This document shows positions 1,387-34,552 of a DNA stretch of 64,000 bases, one piece after another. Location of the stretch: assembly GCA_965218585.1 (NCBI GenBank), contig CBDCLE010000017.1, positions 1 to 64,000 on the forward strand. The letters are read 5' to 3'. The DNA is from Terriglobia bacterium (lineage in GTDB: Bacteria > Acidobacteriota > Terriglobia > 20CM-2-55-15). Position 1 is the first letter of the stretch; each line of letters starts with the position of its first letter. Position numbers and translations under genes: made by a program. The notes under the pieces are model-generated. The model ran no database searches. It saw only the letters and a list, made by a program, of their open reading frames with translations, and was not told the origin of the DNA.

Positions 1387-1758
1387 TCAGCGATTCTCAA
1401 AAGCGGCGGCGTGCTGGAATTCTTTTCGATACGCTATGTCGGTAAGTAGCGGGATGTCGATCTCAACCGCGTAAGCCACCGTCAGCCCGAGCGTGTCGAC
1501 TTCGTCCTGAAGGTCAAAGCTGATCGTCTCTGTCGGTATCTCAAGCTCACGCGCCTTCGCACTGACCAGCTGCACCAATTCGTCCCCGCTACGGCCCTGC
1601 GAGCCCGCCAACTGCACCGCAAACTCGATGTAGTCGCCGAATTCGTTGTCTCGCATGACTGCACTGATGTAACCCGAGGCCAGGTAGGTGTAGAGAATCG
1701 CAACGAACAGCCAGAGCAAGAGAACGATTCGCCCACGGCCCGACTTCTCTCTTTCCAC
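1387..1758 (-). CDS. Hypothetical protein with a single N-terminal TM segment (pilus-associated-like)
   Basis: Basic N-terminus followed by hydrophobic IVLLLWLFVAILY; 123 aa. Confidence 0.6.
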   Translation of the reverse strand: MEREKSGRGRIVLLLWLFVAILYTYLASGYISAVMRDNEFGDYIEFAVQLAGSQGRSGDELVQLVSAKARELEIPTETISFDLQDEVDTLGLTVAYAVEIDIPLLTDIAYRKEFQHAAAFENR

Positions 1759-1789
1759 TGGTTGCGTTCCCCGAAAAGCTTGCCCAGAG

Positions 1790-2056
1790 TTATTCGTCGG
1801 TATCGGATTCCAAGGACTGGCTGAAATCGAGTTGGTCGGAATTCTTACTCAAATGTCGAACATAATCGAGCACTTCCTCTTTCTGCATGCTCGAAAGCTC
1901 CCCCAGCCGGTCCAGGATCTCGAGAACGGTCCGGTCTCTGGATGCACCATTGCGGGAACGTCCGTTTCGACGGCCGTTTCCATTCAGCTTCGTCAGCCGT
2001 TCGAAATGCTCGTCGATCCCGTCTAAGAAGTCATTGTCCATTTCGCGGTGCTCCAC
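1790..2056 (-). CDS. Small hypothetical protein
   Basis: 88-aa ORF co-oriented with neighbours; charged, helical-looking composition. Confidence 0.5.
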   Translation of the reverse strand: MEHREMDNDFLDGIDEHFERLTKLNGNGRRNGRSRNGASRDRTVLEILDRLGELSSMQKEEVLDYVRHLSKNSDQLDFSQSLESDTDE

Positions 2057-2121
2057 TACACATTATCGAACGGGGACTTCGGACCTTTCAAGAACTGAGC
2101 AAACGATCAGAACGCATCACC

Positions 2122-2306
2122 CTAGGTCTTTACGTAAAAATCGTCCTTCGGACAGACCCAGTACATTCCACCCGGCATACGTGCCGACTTGATCACCTTG
2201 GTGGCAACCATGGGAGTTTCACACTGGGGACAAGGCTTTGCAAATGCGCCTCCCTGTCCTTTCCCAAGCTGGCACGCGCCGTCTTGCTGAGCTTTCCACC
2301 TGCCAT
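2122..2306 (-). CDS. Small Zn-ribbon-like protein (61 aa if one A is restored at ~2238); frameshifted in this sequence
   Basis: GGAGGAG RBS then ATG at 2306. Restored reading: MAGGKLSKTARASLGKDREAHLQ/KPCPQCETPMVATKVIKSARMPGGMYWVCPKDDFYVKT*. Confidence 0.6.
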
Positions 2307-2401
2307 ATCGCTTCGAACTCCTCCGATTCTCTAGAAGTCGCTAACTGGTAATGATAACTGAACTTCCAGTATCCACCAACATTAGCGAGGGCCGAACTCA
2401 T

Positions 2402-2977
2402 TCAGCGTTCCCGAATTAACCTCCGGTAATCCTCCGGAGTGTCCACATCGACCAGAACCCCTGGGTCATCGACCCTCACCTCGACGATTCGCTCGGGATG
2501 AGCCCGCACAACAAGATTGGCCCCGGCCCCGTGTGGGAGACGGAGAACCTCGTCAAGTGCAGCCCTCCCGAAAAGAACGGGGTGCCCGCGACGCCCATTG
2601 CAGACAGGGAGGACAATGGACCGGGCGGAGGCTCGTGCAACTAGTTTCTCAATCGTATCCAGAGTGAAGATCGGGTGGTCGACCAGAAGAAGCATCGCCG
2701 CTATGACGTCATCGGACAGCTCTCGGATACCCGCCTGAAACGACGTGGCCATTCCCTCTTCGTAGTTGGGATTGTAAACCCATGCGGAAATATCGACTCT
2801 CCTTAGGATCTCCTCCTGATCGCGGCCCAGGACAACGACGGTCTCTCTTCTAATCGACGATTCAGCAATGGTGGCAAGGATACGCTCGAGAAAAGTCTGT
2901 CCCTCGTACTCCAGAAGAGCCTTGGGTCGGCCCATCCTTTCGGACTTTCCTGCAGCAAGAACGATAGATGCGATCAA
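2402..2977 (-). CDS. MocA/MobA-like nucleotidyltransferase (molybdenum cofactor cytidylyltransferase-like)
   Basis: IVLAAGKSERMGRPKALL, LVDHP, GRRGHPVLF and DVDTPEDY motifs. Confidence 0.85.
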   Translation of the reverse strand: MIASIVLAAGKSERMGRPKALLEYEGQTFLERILATIAESSIRRETVVVLGRDQEEILRRVDISAWVYNPNYEEGMATSFQAGIRELSDDVIAAMLLLVDHPIFTLDTIEKLVARASARSIVLPVCNGRRGHPVLFGRAALDEVLRLPHGAGANLVVRAHPERIVEVRVDDPGVLVDVDTPEDYRRLIRER

Positions 2978-4627: not shown

Positions 4628-5281
4628 ATGATTCTGAGTCTGGTTCTTGTATTAGGCCTGCAAAGTCCCGTACCCGCCGAGCACGAATATTCAGACCTCC
4701 TGCAGATTCGTGCCTCAGACGTCTTTCGGGAGTACCTGGACGAAAATCCCGTAGCCGGCGAGGACGAACTCGAAGAGCTGAGGCAACTATTCAGGTTCCG
4801 GGATTTCGTCGGGACGTCTTTGGATGGAAGGACCGTCAACTTTCACCTGCCCTCTGAGCCCGACTATACGCCTGCCCGGATCCTGTTCCTGTCCTATACA
4901 GCCGAATGGTGTGAGAACTGTAATTACGAAGCGCCCTATCTGGGAGAAATCTACGACAAGTATCACTCAAGAGGTCTGGAGATCGTCACGCGGACCGAAT
5001 ACAGTGAAGTGGACAAGGTCTCCGAGTTCATTGCGCGTCATGACATGCAGTATCCCGTCATGATCGGAAGCGTCGTGGCCTACGATGACCGGGAGACGAT
5101 CCGGATGGAAACGTTCCAGTATCTGCTGCGAACCGCGCTGGCTGACGCCCGGAAGTGGGGCACGCCTTTCAACATCATCATCGTGGACGGCGACATAGAG
5201 AATCCCTACATCGTTACCGGTGAGATGAAATCGGATCAGGTCAATGACCTGATCGAACGCGCCCTTTCGCCGACTCGCTAG
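4628..5281 (+). CDS. TlpA-like thioredoxin-fold redoxin, exported
   Basis: Signal peptide; AEWCENC CxxC motif; WGTPF cis-Pro loop. Confidence 0.8.
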   Translation: MILSLVLVLGLQSPVPAEHEYSDLLQIRASDVFREYLDENPVAGEDELEELRQLFRFRDFVGTSLDGRTVNFHLPSEPDYTPARILFLSYTAEWCENCNYEAPYLGEIYDKYHSRGLEIVTRTEYSEVDKVSEFIARHDMQYPVMIGSVVAYDDRETIRMETFQYLLRTALADARKWGTPFNIIIVDGDIENPYIVTGEMKSDQVNDLIERALSPTR

Positions 5282-5307
5282 AAGAAGCCCTGGCTTTCGA
5301 TACCTTC

Positions 5308-5958
5308 TTATCCACCCAGGCTCTTGACCGCCTCCAACGTATCCAGTGGTTCGGGACGATGCGTGTAGTCGGGATCAAACTGCGCGTATCGTATCGACCC
5401 GGTGCGATCGACAATGAAACGCGCGGGCATGGGGAGCGTCCAACTGTCGTCCCCGTTGGCCTCGGCAAGGTCGATGTTGAAACCGCCATACAGCGTTTTC
5501 AGATCATCTGGAAGCGCCCACCTCAGCCCATATCCATGGGCGACTTCGTTGCCGGGATCATGCAGGATTTCGAAATCCAGATTCTTCTTCTCAATGAGAG
5601 CCCTGTTGTGCTCGGTTTTGCTCGGGGCGACGGCAACCAGCGTCGCATCCAGGCCGTTGAGGTCGTTGACGATTTCGTTCAGAGCTTCCAGCTCTGCGTT
5701 GCAGTAGGGTCACCAGTGTCCCCTGAAAAACGTCACGACGGCCGGACCCTTTTCCAAAAGCCCGCTGAGGCTGACCTGCTGGCCACGGCTGTCGGCAAGA
5801 TCGAACGACGGCGCCCTCTGCCCGATCCCCGGCACACGATCGGTAATCCCCGAATCCCGTAGATCGTCCGTGACCCGATGGATCAGGGCGACCGCTTCAG
5901 GCGGCATTCGCTTTGCAGAACCCTCCCGAATCGTCTTCAGTTTTTCTTCTAAACTCAT
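5308..5958 (-). CDS. AhpC/TSA peroxiredoxin-like protein, probable selenoprotein (216 aa; UGA at 5710-5712 read as Sec)
   Basis: FFRGHW-TGA-PYCNAEL matches the family WCPYC motif. The frame stays open for 133 codons (…WTLPMPARFIVD…DPDYTHRPEP) to TAA 5308-5310. Confidence 0.85.
5680..5696 (-). promoter_or_regulatory. Candidate bacterial SECIS element
   Basis: Perfect hairpin CAGAGCU-GGA-AGCUCUG beginning 13 nt 3' of the UGA, with a G-led apical loop. Confidence 0.7.
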
Positions 5959-5983
5959 GTCTGAATTTCCCCTCGACTCGAAT

Positions 5984-6008
5984 GTGCGCTCTTACAGCGC
6001 ACCTACAG
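5984..6008. repeat. GTAG-type REP unit overlapping the HIT stop codon
   Basis: gtgcgctcttacagcgcacctacag vs gtgcgctcatagagcgcacctacag at 28929-28953. Confidence 0.65.
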
Positions 6009-6533
6009 TTTTCCTTCGTCACTCAAATCATCGAACAGCGTACGCAGCTTCCTGTAGGAATCCTTTAAGTCCTCAGGCAGTACCCGCGTCTCTCCGGTCA
6101 CAGTCACAAAATTCGTATCTCCCGACCAACGCGGAACGATGTGGAAATGCAGGTGGTGGCGTATACCCGCGCCTGCAGCCTCCCCGATGTTCATTCCGAG
6201 GTTGAAACCATCCGGATGATACGCCTCTTCGAGAATGCGAACCGCCTCCCGGGTCAAGGCCATCATCTCATTCATCTGTTCCGAATCAGTGTTACCGATC
6301 TTACCGACGTGAGTATAGGGGGCCACCATGAGGTGCCCTGAGGCATAGGGGAGCAGGTTCATGATGACGAAATTGAGTCGAGCGCGGTGAAGCACGAGCC
6401 GATCGGCATCACCCTCCGGTGACTCACCGATGCAGAAGACGCACTGGCCCGAGTCCGGGGCGGACGACACATACGTGTACCGCCACGGACTCCAAAGAAA
6501 ATCCACGCTAGAGGGCGGGTGGGGCGGACTCAC
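6003..6533 (-). CDS. HIT-family hydrolase (Ap4A phosphorylase-like)
   Basis: LWSPWR, CVFC, GHLMVAP, GFNLGMN, AGAGI and HLHFHIVPRW motifs. Confidence 0.9.
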   Translation of the reverse strand: MSPPHPPSSVDFLWSPWRYTYVSSAPDSGQCVFCIGESPEGDADRLVLHRARLNFVIMNLLPYASGHLMVAPYTHVGKIGNTDSEQMNEMMALTREAVRILEEAYHPDGFNLGMNIGEAAGAGIRHHLHFHIVPRWSGDTNFVTVTGETRVLPEDLKDSYRKLRTLFDDLSDEGKL

Positions 6534-9782: not shown

Positions 9783-9989
9783 ATGAAAGACGGTATCCAT
9801 CCAGAATACGTCGAAGCGGTCGTCACCTGTGCCTGCGGTGAAACGTTCCGCACCCGATCGACGAAGCCCGAGATCCATCTGGAGATCTGCTCTAAGTGCC
9901 ATCCCTTCTTCACCGGCAAACAGAAGTTGGTCGACACGGCTGGCCGGGTTGAACGATTCCAGCGAAAGTACGCTAAAAACAAGAAGTAG
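9783..9989 (+). CDS. rpmE: 50S ribosomal protein L31 (Zn-binding C+ type)
   Basis: [29 protein letters not shown]. Confidence 0.97.
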
Positions 9990-10055
9990 GTGGCCCGCGG
10001 AAATTCTTCCCTACGTGAAGTGTATCTGTTTGAGACCACAGACCAGGATTGAGCG

Positions 10056-22208: not shown

Positions 22209-23573
22209 GAGGTCGTTCCAATCGGTGTGTAAAAAGAGAAGGCGGTGTACGCTTTCGGTGAATTCGAAACCGTAAGCAATCCCGGCAGCAATCGGGAGAA
22301 AGGTACACCACCCATGAAGAAGAAGAACATACCGGCATCAGTGGCGTCAACGAACGCGTATGAAGGTTTGGAGGACTGGGCGCGATCCCGGGTCCAAGTC
22401 TGGCTACAGGAGCTGCTCGAGGACGAAGTCACTCAATTTCTGGGTCGGGAAAAGTCGGAGCGGAGTCCGAATCGACGAGGATACCGGAACGGTCACGGGA
22501 AGCCGCGACGCTTCGCAATGATGAACGGTACGATGGAGGTTCGACGACCTCGGGTTCGAAACACCGCCGAGCGGTTCGAGAGTCAGATCCTGCCGTATTT
22601 TCGACGGAAATCGAAACAGCTGGGCGAGCTACTTCCCGATCTCTACCTCCACGGTCTGGCCACAGGGGACTTCGAGCAGGCCATGCGCGGACTGCTTGGC
22701 GCTGGCGCTCCGTTGTCGCGAGCATCGATCCAACGACTGAAATCGACCTGGCAGTTGGAGTATGACGAGTGGGTCCAGCAGGACCTGTCCGGCATCGAGG
22801 TCGTGTACCAGTGGGCAGACGGCTTGTACGTGAAAGCGGGGATCGCGAAAGAGCGAGCGGCATTGCTGGTGATCATCGGAGCCTTGTCAGACGGGCGCAA
22901 AGTGGTGTTGGCCTGTGAGAGCGGGCAGCGGGAAAGCAAGGAGTCCTGGAGCCGCATTCTGCGCAATCTCCAGAGACGGGGCCTGAAGCTGGGACGGCTG
23001 ACTGTCGCGGACGGTCACCTGGGCATCTGGTCCGCGCTGGCCGAGCAACAGCCCCAGGGCCAGGAACAACGCTGCTGGAACCACAAGTCGATCAACGTGG
23101 TCGATCATCTGCCGAAGACCGAGCAGCCCGCGGCCAGACAGCTGCTCCATGGGATGGCCTTCGCGAACTCCCGCGCGGCCTGCGAACGAAAGCGGGATCA
23201 GTTCGTCCGCCGATATGAGAAGAACTATCCCAAAGCGGCTGAGACGCTGTTGCGGGACTGGGACCGGATGATCACTTTCTATGAGTTCCCGAAACAACAC
23301 TGGGTGCATCTGAGAACGACCAACATCGTCGAATCGCCTTTCGACATGGTTCGCCTCCGTACCAACGCCGCTCGCCGATTCAAGCGTGTCGAGAATGCAA
23401 CGGCAATGATCTGGAAGCTACTACGTGTCGCTGAGAAGGCTTGGCGACACTTAAAAGGATCCGAACTCTTACAAGAGGTCTATGATGGTCAGCAATTCGC
23501 TGACGGCATCAGAGTCGTGATGAAATCGAAGGCCGCCGCCTGATGACTTTTACACACCTTTTGTAATGACCTC
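22209..23573 (+). mobile_element. IS256-family insertion sequence (1365 bp)
   Basis: 26-bp TIRs with 4 mismatches (GAGGTCgTTcCAAtcGGTGTGTAAAA); 8-bp direct repeat TCATTAAA at 22201-22208 and 23574-23581. Confidence 0.93.
22314..23543 (+). CDS. IS256-family (Mutator-type DDE) transposase
   Basis: GYRNG, WADG, ADGHLGIW, QRCWNH and LRTTNIVES motifs; intact ORF. Confidence 0.93.
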   Translation: MKKKNIPASVASTNAYEGLEDWARSRVQVWLQELLEDEVTQFLGREKSERSPNRRGYRNGHGKPRRFAMMNGTMEVRRPRVRNTAERFESQILPYFRRKSKQLGELLPDLYLHGLATGDFEQAMRGLLGAGAPLSRASIQRLKSTWQLEYDEWVQQDLSGIEVVYQWADGLYVKAGIAKERAALLVIIGALSDGRKVVLACESGQRESKESWSRILRNLQRRGLKLGRLTVADGHLGIWSALAEQQPQGQEQRCWNHKSINVVDHLPKTEQPAARQLLHGMAFANSRAACERKRDQFVRRYEKNYPKAAETLLRDWDRMITFYEFPKQHWVHLRTTNIVESPFDMVRLRTNAARRFKRVENATAMIWKLLRVAEKAWRHLKGSELLQEVYDGQQFADGIRVVMKSKAAA

Positions 23574-32246: not shown

Positions 32247-33575
32247 ATGCCCCCAGAACCCGCCCACAGCAAGTTCAGCAAGTTGCGCGAATCCCTGACC
32301 TTACGTCTTCGGGAGGCCCGCGCCTCGACGGACGCACTCTTTTCGATGCTGGACCCGGAGGCAATCTATGAAAGGCCGATCGCGGAACGGCACCGGATCA
32401 TTTTTTATCTTGGACACTTCGAAGCATTTGACTGGAACCTTCTGGCGCGTACCACACTGGGCCTGGACTCGTTTAACGAGTATTTTGATGACCTCTTCGC
32501 GTTTGGAATCGATCCAATTGATGGAAGACTGCCCAGCGACACGCCTTCGGACTGGCCAGCTGTCTCCGAGATCCATGCATATAACCTGCGCATCCGAGGG
32601 ACGGTCGACGATTTCCTCGGAAAAGCTGACTTTGAAGCTTCCGAAGACCTCAAGAACGGATTGGTTTTTGAAGTCGCGGTCGAACATCGTTTGATGCACG
32701 CCGAAACCCTCACGTACATGCTCCATTGGCTTTCTCTTGACAGTAAACACGCCCCATCCTCCGAACACGACATCTTTGGTCTTCAACAAAAGAAGCACCA
32801 GGTTGAAATTCCAGAAGGACTCGCCACCCTGGGACGAGAGAAGAATGGCGTTTTCGGCTGGGACAACGAGTTCGGCGAAGTAGGGATCGAGGTTCCACGG
32901 TTCCGGATCGACGTTCGGAACGTTACAAACGGACAGTTCCTGGAATTCATTCGCAGCGGCGGATACGATGACCGGGGCCTGTGGAGCAAAGATGACTGGG
33001 ACTGGAAATCGAAATCCGGTGTGACCCACCCGAGTTTCTGGGAACGTCGTGGAGAAGTGTGGATGCAAAGGAACATGTTCGACGTACGTCCGATGCCGTT
33101 ATCGTGGCCGGTTTATGTCAGTCACGCCGAAGCTGCTGCCTATGCTAATTGGGCGGGAGGATCGTTACCGACAGAGGCCCAACTGCATCGGGCTGCATAC
33201 GGAACACCGGACGGCGAGGAACGGGACTATGCGTGGGGCTCGAAAGCCCCCGGCTCCGAACACGGAAACTTCGACTCTCGCAGATGGAATTCCACTCCTG
33301 TCGGCTCGTTCCCCTCGGGCAACAGCGCTTTCGGCGTCTCTGATCTCATCGGCAACGGATGGGAGTGGACTTCGACTGTCTTCGAACCGTTTGAGGGATT
33401 CCAACGATTTCACTTCTACCCCGAGTACTCATCGAACTTTTTTGACGGCAAGCATTATGTGATGAAGGGGGGATCGGCGAGAACCTCCGCGTGCATGCTC
33501 AGGCGGTCGTTTCGGAACTGGTTCCAGCCGCACTACCCTCACATATACTCCTCTTTCCGCTGCGTGGAAGCATGA
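32247..33575 (+). CDS. egtB: EgtB/OvoA-family non-heme iron sulfoxide synthase (DinB + FGE-sulfatase domains)
   Basis: FYLGH and HRLMHAE His ligands, FGWDNE, LPTEA, GNGWEWT, RRSFRNW; overlaps egtD. Confidence 0.8.
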   Translation: MPPEPAHSKFSKLRESLTLRLREARASTDALFSMLDPEAIYERPIAERHRIIFYLGHFEAFDWNLLARTTLGLDSFNEYFDDLFAFGIDPIDGRLPSDTPSDWPAVSEIHAYNLRIRGTVDDFLGKADFEASEDLKNGLVFEVAVEHRLMHAETLTYMLHWLSLDSKHAPSSEHDIFGLQQKKHQVEIPEGLATLGREKNGVFGWDNEFGEVGIEVPRFRIDVRNVTNGQFLEFIRSGGYDDRGLWSKDDWDWKSKSGVTHPSFWERRGEVWMQRNMFDVRPMPLSWPVYVSHAEAAAYANWAGGSLPTEAQLHRAAYGTPDGEERDYAWGSKAPGSEHGNFDSRRWNSTPVGSFPSGNSAFGVSDLIGNGWEWTSTVFEPFEGFQRFHFYPEYSSNFFDGKHYVMKGGSARTSACMLRRSFRNWFQPHYPHIYSSFRCVEA

Positions 33576-34552
33576 GGCAGACCATACCGGCAGACCAGGG
33601 ACCCGACTCGGAGACAGGCCAGTTCATCGCTGCCGTTCGCAGTGGGCTCAAGGATCAAACACAAAAGACACTCGACGTCAGATATCTTTACGACGCCGTA
33701 GGCTCGGCGCTGTTCGAAGTCATCACACTGCTTCCCGAATACGGAGTCACGCGTGCGGACGAGCGCCTGATCGATCGCCATGCCGCTGAACTTGCAAACC
33801 ATCTGGGGCCCGACGTCGTCATAGCCGAACTCGGGAGTGGCACGGGTGCCAAGACACAGCGCATCATTTCGGCACTCAGAGGCACGAAACCTCTCATCTA
33901 CAGACCCATCGACGTGTCCGCCTCGGCGCTGGAGCGTTGCCAGCGGGAACTTCGGACTTTTGATCACGTCGAATTGGAACCCCTGCAGCTTTCGTTCTTC
34001 GAAGGTCTGGAGGCGGCGATGGCGCGAACGCCCGAGGACAAACGCCTTCTTCTTCTATTCCTGGGTGGGACGATCGGAAATTTCGACAGGCCTGCAGTTC
34101 CGGAATTTCTGAAGGACATCCGTGGAATCCTTCGACCCGGTGATGCCTTCCTGCTTGGAACTGATCTAGAAAAGGCGACGTCCCGTCTCCTCGCGGCCTA
34201 CGATGATGCTCTCGGCGTGACGGCGGCATTCAACCTGAACGTTCTGGCAAGAATCAACCGGGAACTTGGCGGCAACTTCGATGTCTCCCAATTCGAACAC
34301 GTGGCTCGTTACGATGAGGACGAACGCCGTATCGAAATGCACCTTCGAGCCCTCCGAGACCAGCAGGTCGGGATCACGGCTGCAGATATCGAGATCAGCT
34401 TCGAGGAAGGAGAAACGATCTGGACTGAGAGCAGCCACAAGTTCAACGCTGCAGAGATCGCAGAGTTAAGTGAGATGAGCGGGTTTCGGTGTGCCGCTCA
34501 GTGGGTAGACGAAGAATGGCCCTTCGCAGAAAACCTATTGGTCGCCGAATAA
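33572..34552 (+). CDS. egtD: L-histidine N-alpha-trimethyltransferase
   Basis: YLYD..GS.LFE.IT.LPEY, ELGSG, AYDD..GVTAAFNLN, RIEMHL and TESSHKF motifs. Confidence 0.92.
   Translation: MRQTIPADQGPDSETGQFIAAVRSGLKDQTQKTLDVRYLYDAVGSALFEVITLLPEYGVTRADERLIDRHAAELANHLGPDVVIAELGSGTGAKTQRIISALRGTKPLIYRPIDVSASALERCQRELRTFDHVELEPLQLSFFEGLEAAMARTPEDKRLLLLFLGGTIGNFDRPAVPEFLKDIRGILRPGDAFLLGTDLEKATSRLLAAYDDALGVTAAFNLNVLARINRELGGNFDVSQFEHVARYDEDERRIEMHLRALRDQQVGITAADIEISFEEGETIWTESSHKFNAAEIAELSEMSGFRCAAQWVDEEWPFAENLLVAE

Follow-up and report, generated by a model that had tools for sequence, protein, structure and literature searches.

A probable peroxiredoxin-fold selenoprotein with a W-U-P-Y-C active site encoded across an in-frame TGA in a Terriglobia bacterium

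Does a TGA codon at the active site of a redox protein end a short reading frame, or is it read as selenocysteine (Sec)? The question is raised by a minus-strand locus in the first 64,000 nucleotides of contig CBDCLE010000017.1 (GenBank assembly GCA_965218585.1), from an uncultured Terriglobia bacterium of the Acidobacteriota; this whole 64-kb stretch is called the window below. An earlier note, made from the letters of this DNA alone, had proposed an unannotated peroxiredoxin-like selenoprotein of UxxC type, and comparison with homologues and related loci supports that reading. The locus is very probably one gene for a 216-residue, probably cytoplasmic protein of peroxiredoxin (Prx) fold with the active site W-U83-P-Y-C86. 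Its in-frame TGA most likely encodes Sec, and the organism would then possess selABCD and incorporate selenium. The features are collected in Table 1.

The reading frame and its homologues

Under the bacterial code (table 11), the minus-strand open reading frame (ORF) at 5958..5710 has 82 sense codons, ends in ...VVTFFRGHW and stops at the TGA. When the TGA is read through, the frame resumes with PYCNAELEAL and continues for 133 further codons to a TAA. The translation across this point, with TGA as U, is ...FFRGHW-U-PYCNAELEALNEIVNDLNGLDATLVAVAPSK. The earlier note had remarked both that the short ORF stops exactly at the first redox Cys position and that the continuation is typical of a family; both remarks hold, and the AhpC/TSA domain crosses the TGA. 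The start of the predicted protein, MSLEEKL, aligns with the MSLQ... starts of homologues, and its N-terminal extension is common to the full-length homologues and lies outside the Pfam domain. The sole table 11 ORF in frame after the TGA is 40 amino acids long (5308..5430), so 93 of the 133 codons beyond the TGA are without an ATG, GTG or TTG start of their own. Differences from a related locus (L001, 55 codons compared) number 15, 10 and 32 at codon positions 1, 2 and 3 after the TGA, a third-position bias also seen upstream, which indicates that the downstream part is under coding selection. Most invariant columns of the protein alignment lie downstream of the UGA.

A search of a protein collection gave 272 matches, of which the best 120 were analysed. 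These comprise full-length proteins at 40-50% identity, 215-235 amino acids long and covering 98-100% of the 216-residue product, and a single 120-residue fragment (P0101, 69% identical) that begins after the TGA and was called as a separate protein. In the column of residue 83, 116 of these 120 have Cys, two have Ser and one has Leu, the fragment making up the number. The column of Cys86 is Cys in all 119 homologues that cover it, P0101 starting later. This is the Cys/TGA pairing that the earlier note had anticipated. Nearly all of these protein-database matches are Cys forms, and full-length identity among the best 120 never exceeds 50%.

Closer relatives emerge at the DNA level. A scan of reference genomes, one genome per species, found 562 relatives confirmed by tblastn, and the best 80 were kept. 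Among these 80, the position of codon 83 is TGA in 79 and TGC in one (L070), and the top locus is 60% identical to the window gene, the source genome itself not being among them. Because a stop lowers the tblastn score, the ranking is not biased toward TGA. The protein database, for its part, shows Cys forms since TGA forms escape gene callers. The 80 loci span 12 named phyla, with seven lacking a phylum name, and include 20 from Pseudomonadota, 13 from Thermodesulfobacteriota, 11 from Acidobacteriota and 10 from Rokuibacteriota; both the TGA and the hairpin that follows it are conserved over about 80 species. L070 and ten plasmid-borne genes served as Cys-form controls (n = 11).

Table 1. Features of the probable selenoprotein locus and its surroundings, in window coordinates
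Feature	Position	Strand	Remarks
Full selenoprotein gene	5308..5958	-	ATG at 5958, Sec-TGA as codon 83, TAA at 5310-5308; 216 residues
In-frame UGA, probably read as Sec (U83)	5710..5712	-	First residue of the W-U-P-Y-C redox motif
TGC codon, Cys86	5701..5703	-	Proposed resolving partner in UxxC; falls on the Prx peroxidatic Cys in the alignment to 2ywn
SECIS hairpin	5680..5696	-	Stem CAGAGCU/AGCUCUG, loop GGA; inside the A-E-L-E-A-L codons
N-terminal extension, about 44 residues	5827..5958	-	Two long helices before the redox domain
AhpC/TSA (peroxiredoxin-fold) domain, residues 45-191	5386..5826	-	Spans the UGA; Pfam
Possible Shine-Dalgarno sequence GAGGGG	5969..5974	-	10 nt before the ATG; found by reading the sequence
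Convergent TlpA/ResA-like CxxC (WCENC) redoxin	4628..5281	+	Context only

The hairpin downstream of the UGA

Thirteen nucleotides (5709-5697) separate the TGA from a hairpin in which CAGAGCU (5696-5690) pairs perfectly with AGCUCUG (5686-5680) around the loop GGA (5689-5687). The earlier note had described this 7-bp stem and its placement correctly and had likened it to a selenocysteine insertion sequence (SECIS). The hairpin is the centroid structure, at -9.6 kcal/mol, and its loop begins 20 nt after the UGA. Constraints on bacterial SECIS (bSECIS) elements are given in the legend of Figure 2 of a 2026 review: the apical loop has 3-9 nt and the upper stem 4-16 bp, the minimum free energy is -7.5 kcal/mol or lower, the first two positions of the loop include a G, in most cases as G followed by G or U, and 16-37 nt lie between UGA and loop (PMC13188914). 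The window hairpin falls within all four published constraints, with its 3-nt GGA loop, 7 bp, 20 nt and -9.6 kcal/mol. It is also like the consensus embodied in the bSECISearch model and in the E. coli fdh elements, a small-loop G-[G/U] hairpin within the coding sequence just 3' of the UGA. It differs from that consensus in that the stem core of this family is nearly invariant in sequence over 12 named phyla.

Evidence that the predicted hairpin is a conserved RNA element comes from a gap-free alignment of the 45 nt from the TGA in the window gene and 79 loci (n = 80). Five core pairs (columns 18-22 with 28-32) are formed in 77-80 of the 80 sequences, and the two pairs below the core show compensatory double changes in 14 of 80 (C-G to U-A) and 11 of 80. 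Paired cells amount to 81.4% overall; with the 3' partners shifted by 1-3 columns they never exceed 49.4%, and none of 500 column shuffles reached the observed pairing or covariation score. RNAalifold recovered only five of the pairs, with weak energy.

The core, GAGCUG-[G/U]NN-GCUCU, is near-invariant across the TGA genes of the 12 named phyla, and its synonymous sites are frozen. Within the stem of the 80 TGA genes, Glu is encoded by GAG in 80, Leu by CTG in 79 and Ala by GCT in 77, whereas outside the stem the same genes, which range in GC content from 39 to 72%, use these codons at 53.5%, 36.6% and 12.6%, respectively. Loop position 1 is G in all 80; the base after it is G in 60 and U in the other 20. 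The 11 Cys-form genes encode the same N-x-E-L-x-A-L peptide with mixed codons and have a weak or absent hairpin; their mean folding energy over 26 nt is -3.5 kcal/mol versus -9.9 kcal/mol for the 80 TGA genes. The SECIS-like character claimed in the earlier note is thus borne out by conservation, compensatory changes and frozen codons, none of which is seen in the Cys controls. In the 64-kb window the core motif GAGCTGKNNGCTCT occurs once, against an expectation of 0.02.

The residue encoded by the loop, between E-L and A-L (5687-5689; columns 25-27 of alignment A2), is one of E, D, V, A, Y, S and L in TGA forms, a limited choice because the loop sets G or U as the first base of their codons. 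The 11 Cys forms have Q (eight), K (two) or R (one) there.

Readings of the TGA

Several observations weigh against Sec insertion at this locus. Folded as 26 nt by themselves, the hairpins of the family attain -7.5 kcal/mol in only 58 of 80 cases, and the 66 nt that follow the window TGA are no more stable than shuffled sequence (z = 0.33). Of the 2159 TGA trinucleotides on both strands of the window, 19 (0.9%) precede a perfect stem of 7 bp or more in SECIS-like geometry. A scan of 5200-6100 against Rfam at E values up to 10 gave no match, a result that is uninformative, since none of the Rfam models fits this SECIS. No NCBIfam selenoprotein model scores above its cut-off with the protein, the best being SelL_rel_redox (NF040769) at 48.5 bits versus 120. 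The selA, selB and selD genes are not among the 54 large ORFs of the window by NCBIfam, and ARAGORN finds no tRNA-Sec in the 64 kb, only a tRNA-Phe; these absences are weak evidence, because 64 kb is a small part of a genome. A search of frames of at least 150 codons that are open but for one or two TGAs yielded no second selenoprotein candidate in the window. When ORFs within 4 kb were clustered over 81 loci, no conserved neighbour pointed to a partner, the commonest cluster being present in only nine (ABC ATPase, sigma factor, SDR and the like). Finally, the parts of the cited papers that deal with the family describe no biochemistry for it, so that a catalytic role can only be proposed. Taken alone, the hairpin is merely suggestive; it is the comparative data that lift it above chance.

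As for the candidates rejected in that search, the other TGA-interrupted frames of the window are shadow frames of known genes, and an intergenic frame at 1450-2334 (+) is Arg-rich nonsense opposite real minus-strand ORFs.

Of the alternatives to Sec insertion, the one that survives best, improbable as it is, holds that the Sec trait has been lost: gene and SECIS would be intact while the machinery is gone, so that the UGA terminates or is read at a low level as Cys or Trp by near-cognate tRNAs and the gene is decaying. Such a loss would agree with the lack in the window of sel genes, tRNA-Sec and other selenoprotein genes, and with the history of the family. FastTree, a fast method only, was used to build a tree of 151 rows, made up of 80 Sec rows, 11 Cys loci and 60 of the 120 proteins; two of its long-branch joins are flagged. 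On it the Sec/Cys state changes six times, versus about 50 in shuffles, and supported branches force at least four of these changes, which means that the family tree needs at least 4-6 changes of Sec state. The Sec forms are strongly clustered, with most Cys forms in a separate supported set of 49-54 rows. Because Ser and Leu variants are nested in Sec clades, loss of Sec at this site does happen. Loss of the trait in this bacterium is opposed by the state of the gene itself: the frame, the hairpin and the conserved downstream residues are all intact, the hairpin is the exact family core, and differences downstream of the TGA are biased toward third positions as they are upstream. Moreover, absence of the machinery cannot be demonstrated from 64 kb alone.

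A single origin of Sec without reversals was considered for the family and is unsupported, given the six changes of the tree, at least four of them forced by supported branches. As to the variants, the close homologue P0001 has Leu and the close homologues P0004 and P0018 have Ser at the Sec column, and they nest in supported clades made up of Sec forms apart from them (16 of 17 rows and 8 of 10). Both Leu and Ser have a codon one base from TGA (TTA and TCA), and one might guess that these forms were converted from TGA.

Machinery for Sec insertion is seen beside one relative. At L059, in a metagenome-assembled genome (MAG) of the Gammaproteobacteria, the family gene at 10001 has directly upstream of it an ORF carrying SelB domains, namely GTP_EFTU, the beta-barrel of SelB and its winged helices 2 and 3. 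Between the two genes is one for tRNA-SeC (9846-9941); tRNA-Sec was not seen in the other 79 loci. The SelB-domain ORF of that locus (L059:6447-10651) continues in the same frame into a beta-lactamase-type domain.

Less credible again is a pseudogene or an error, that is, a recent nonsense mutation or a sequencing or assembly mistake that turned TGC or TGT into TGA, with the hairpin a coincidence of encoding E-L-E-A-L. A single substitution would suffice, 116 of 120 database homologues have Cys, and the hairpin alone is statistically not unusual. Yet the same TGA is present in 79 of the 80 nearest loci, which come from independent assemblies. The window gene belongs to a supported group of 10 rows that are Sec throughout, where its nearest rows come from MAGs of Gemmatimonadota and Thermoanaerobaculia. 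Its stem codons are GAG, CTG and GCT, as in Sec forms, and not mixed, as in Cys forms.

There is a slighter chance still that two products or a designed termination are involved, with a functional 82-residue peptide and a downstream frame that is separate or untranslated. Gene finders using table 11 would call the locus in this way, and P0101 is a downstream fragment that was indeed called alone. Neither the thioredoxin/Prx fold nor the Pfam domain is complete, however, with one half alone, the redox motif is itself split by the TGA, and the codons past the TGA offer no in-frame start for 93 positions. An altered genetic code of the kind of tables 4 and 25, with TGA as a sense codon for a standard amino acid, would also keep the frame open and is effectively refuted, since TGA is the commonest ordinary stop of the window, ending 22 of its 45 family-confirmed genes at expected lengths (TAG 15, TAA 8), and the release factor and housekeeping genes look ordinary, all of which indicates the standard code.

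Protein, known relatives and genomic setting

Pfam assigns the region across residue 83 to AhpC-TSA (PF00578) with E = 4.1e-27 and 95 bits (cut-off 26), and PF08534 matches at 2.9e-20. No curated NCBIfam model reaches its cut-off (BCP 44 versus 140, DsbE 26.4 versus 123, TlpA 19.5 versus 230). An AlphaFold2 model from alignment A1 has a thioredoxin/Prx core (predicted local distance difference test, pLDDT, 94.3; predicted template modelling score, pTM, 0.91). The extension is modelled as helices 3-17 and 20-35 with pLDDT of about 90 or more, and residue 83 immediately precedes helix 84-94. Foldseek against the PDB places BCP/PrxQ and AhpE proteins first (BCP1, Bcp4, BcpB, AhpE; E down to 5.9e-13), at target-normalised template modelling (TM) scores of 0.84-0.91, with ResA next at about 0.80. 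The N-terminus, MSLEEKLKTIREGSAKR..., has by inspection no hydrophobic run or signal-like stretch and is modelled as two soluble helices, which makes a cytoplasmic location likely.

By sequence, the best solved relative is a Prx-like protein of Sulfolobus tokodaii (2ywn, 1.6e-12). In the alignment to it, Sec83 lies at the Prx Thr and Arg79 at the Prx Pro. The conserved Prx Arg has Pro178 in its column of the HMMER alignment, with an invariant Arg180 two residues on. The fold is thus that of a peroxiredoxin, with a thioredoxin-type UxxC in place of the PxxxTxxC signature. Model and fold search confirm the Prx fold and do not decide between peroxidase and disulfide reductase chemistry.

A catalytic cycle may be proposed from these features. 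By the established bacterial mechanism, a ribosome arriving at UGA-83 would meet the hairpin 13 nt downstream bound by SelB-GTP-Sec-tRNA(Sec), and Sec would be inserted in place of termination. Sec83 would then sit at the N-terminal end of helix 84-94, like the attacking residue of thioredoxin-type CxxC proteins, and could attack an oxidised substrate as the nucleophile, be it a disulfide or, possibly, a hydroperoxide. The intermediate would be resolved by Cys86 to form a selenenylsulfide, which may in turn be re-reduced by a thioredoxin- or glutathione-type reductant.

Several known groups share part of this design. Canonical peroxiredoxins (BCP/PrxQ, AhpE and AhpC, and Sec-containing Prx with TxxU) have a like fold, and Cys86 aligns with their peroxidatic Cys, but the window protein lacks their PxxxTxxC signature; it has R79-G-H-W-U83-P-Y-C86 instead, with Sec on the Thr position. 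TlpA, ResA and DsbE proteins share with it a motif of the W-C-x-x-C type, placed where helix 1 of a thioredoxin-like fold begins, and the PDB entry 4nmu is a weak match (1.6e-07). They differ in that the window protein scores 42.2 bits with the ResA model versus a cut-off of 170, has a fold closer to Prx than to ResA, and carries an amphipathic two-helix extension rather than an N-terminal anchor or signal. Cys forms annotated in RefSeq as "peroxiredoxin-like family protein", which go by the name PRX_like2 (cd02970) in work on cyanobacteria, resemble it with 39-47% full-length identity, a like length, and the W-C-P-Y-C-N and N-x-E-L-x-A-L motifs, but they have TGC or TGT and no conserved hairpin.

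Kryukov and Gladyshev in 2004 and Zhang and Gladyshev in 2005-2008 reportedly predicted Prx-like thiol:disulfide oxidoreductase selenoproteins by computation. A family named "Prx-like protein" already counted as known in the text of a 2005 paper (PMC1088965), and the Global Ocean Sampling (GOS) survey, in its Table 2, lists "Prx-like 1, pfam00578, UxxC" with 225 selenoproteins (PMC2398784). In Table 1 of the 2026 review, a "Prx-like thiol:disulfide oxidoreductase, PF00578, UxxC/UxxU" is predicted with high confidence, beside the entries "Peroxiredoxin-like family protein, cd02970, UxxS" and "Redoxin family protein, PF08534, UxxC" (PMC13188914). The earlier note was therefore right that AhpC/Prx-like selenoproteins are known. 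As these sources describe it, the Prx-like thiol:disulfide oxidoreductase family has PF00578, a thioredoxin-like UxxC rather than TxxU, a SECIS after the UGA and widespread Cys homologues, and the window gene fits that description feature for feature. The match is one of description only, and not of sequence to the representative WP_010940744.1. Because a UxxC Prx-like family has been described from 2004 onward, the gene is taken as a further member of a catalogued selenoprotein family.

The 216-residue form with its two-helix extension and WUPYC motif may belong to the same subfamily as the catalogued Prx-like selenoproteins or to a sister of it, and the supplementary sequence sets of the GOS survey may already contain it (PMC2398784). 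Cyanobacterial PRX_like2 (cd02970) is described, in the part of the source that treats it, as having a thioredoxin CXXC motif and lacking typical Prx catalytic residues (PMC3514251). Compared by description, the selenoprotein entry for cd02970 in the review's table has UxxS only, versus UxxC in the window gene (PMC13188914). It is on this account that the gene might represent a distinct, very widespread and perhaps uncatalogued selenoprotein subfamily of about 216 residues with a two-helix extension, WUPYC and a SECIS core almost invariant over at least 12 phyla, a proposal that seems doubtful at present. The SECIS core dictates E-L-x-A-L and limits x to residues with codons starting with G or U. 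If the proposal were true, this would point either to an unusually strict recognition code between SelB and SECIS across phyla or to a gene that has repeatedly spread horizontally and taken its SECIS along.

The surroundings of the gene in the window are those of an ordinary housekeeping chromosome (rpsA, prfA, prmC, recA, ileS, valS, glnA). Among 120 listed matches to its RecA, the one row that carries an organism name is a MAG labelled Acidobacteria, at 82% identity, and others reach 94%; RecA thus gives a weak taxonomic placement. As the earlier note observed, the gene converges on a TlpA-like CxxC redoxin, which scores 27.4 bits with the Pfam model AhpC-TSA (cut-off 26) and 48 bits with ResA of NCBIfam (cut-off 170). 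The redoxin is not a conserved neighbour, and none of the flanking ORFs of the window is in the 15 most widespread neighbour clusters. On the other side, a perfect 7-bp hairpin (GUGCGCU-GUAAG-AGCGCAC, 5984-6002, minus strand) lies 26 nt before the start of the selenoprotein gene, directly after the stop of an upstream HIT-family gene (6003-6533). It is not followed by a U-run and is possibly a terminator or processing site. Among relatives, plasmid-borne Cys homologues (L081-L085 and L089) repeatedly lie beside genes for glutathione S-transferase (GST), carboxymuconolactone decarboxylase (AhpD-like) and SDR oxidoreductases, and the family gene of L059 adjoins DJ-1/PfpI and GST-like genes. These neighbours hint at a defence against oxidative or electrophile stress.

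Elsewhere in the window, an EgtB/OvoA/SenA-like sulfoxide synthase gene at 32247-34552 (+) scores 241-268 bits, below all three cut-offs, and overlaps an EgtD histidine methyltransferase gene that scores above its own; together they look like an ergothioneine-type pathway. The score of the synthase with SenA, the selenoneine synthase, nearly equals that with EgtB, which has some interest in a likely selenium user. At 2402-2977 (-) lies a MocA/YgfJ-like NTP (nucleoside triphosphate) transferase gene (TIGR03310, 148 bits versus a cut-off of 186; DVU_1551 family, 150 versus 315), of a family presumably linked to the maturation of molybdenum hydroxylases, some of them selenium-dependent. An IS256-family transposase gene (22245-23543, +) is found between recA and a gene for Xaa-Pro dipeptidase.

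Known Sec biology is unchanged by this gene, and a specialist would not be surprised by it; the near-invariance of the SECIS sequence over many phyla is the one aspect that may be worth more study. That invariant core also provides a simple and specific probe for further members. Since matches in the protein database are almost all Cys forms and the 79 nearest relatives in genomic DNA are all TGA forms, surveys at the protein level systematically undercount the family, and for a conserved 216-residue redox enzyme a standard gene finder reports an 82-residue fragment or nothing. The gene indicates that this uncultured bacterium is likely to use selenium, and the value of the finding lies in annotation and in such a marker of selenium use.

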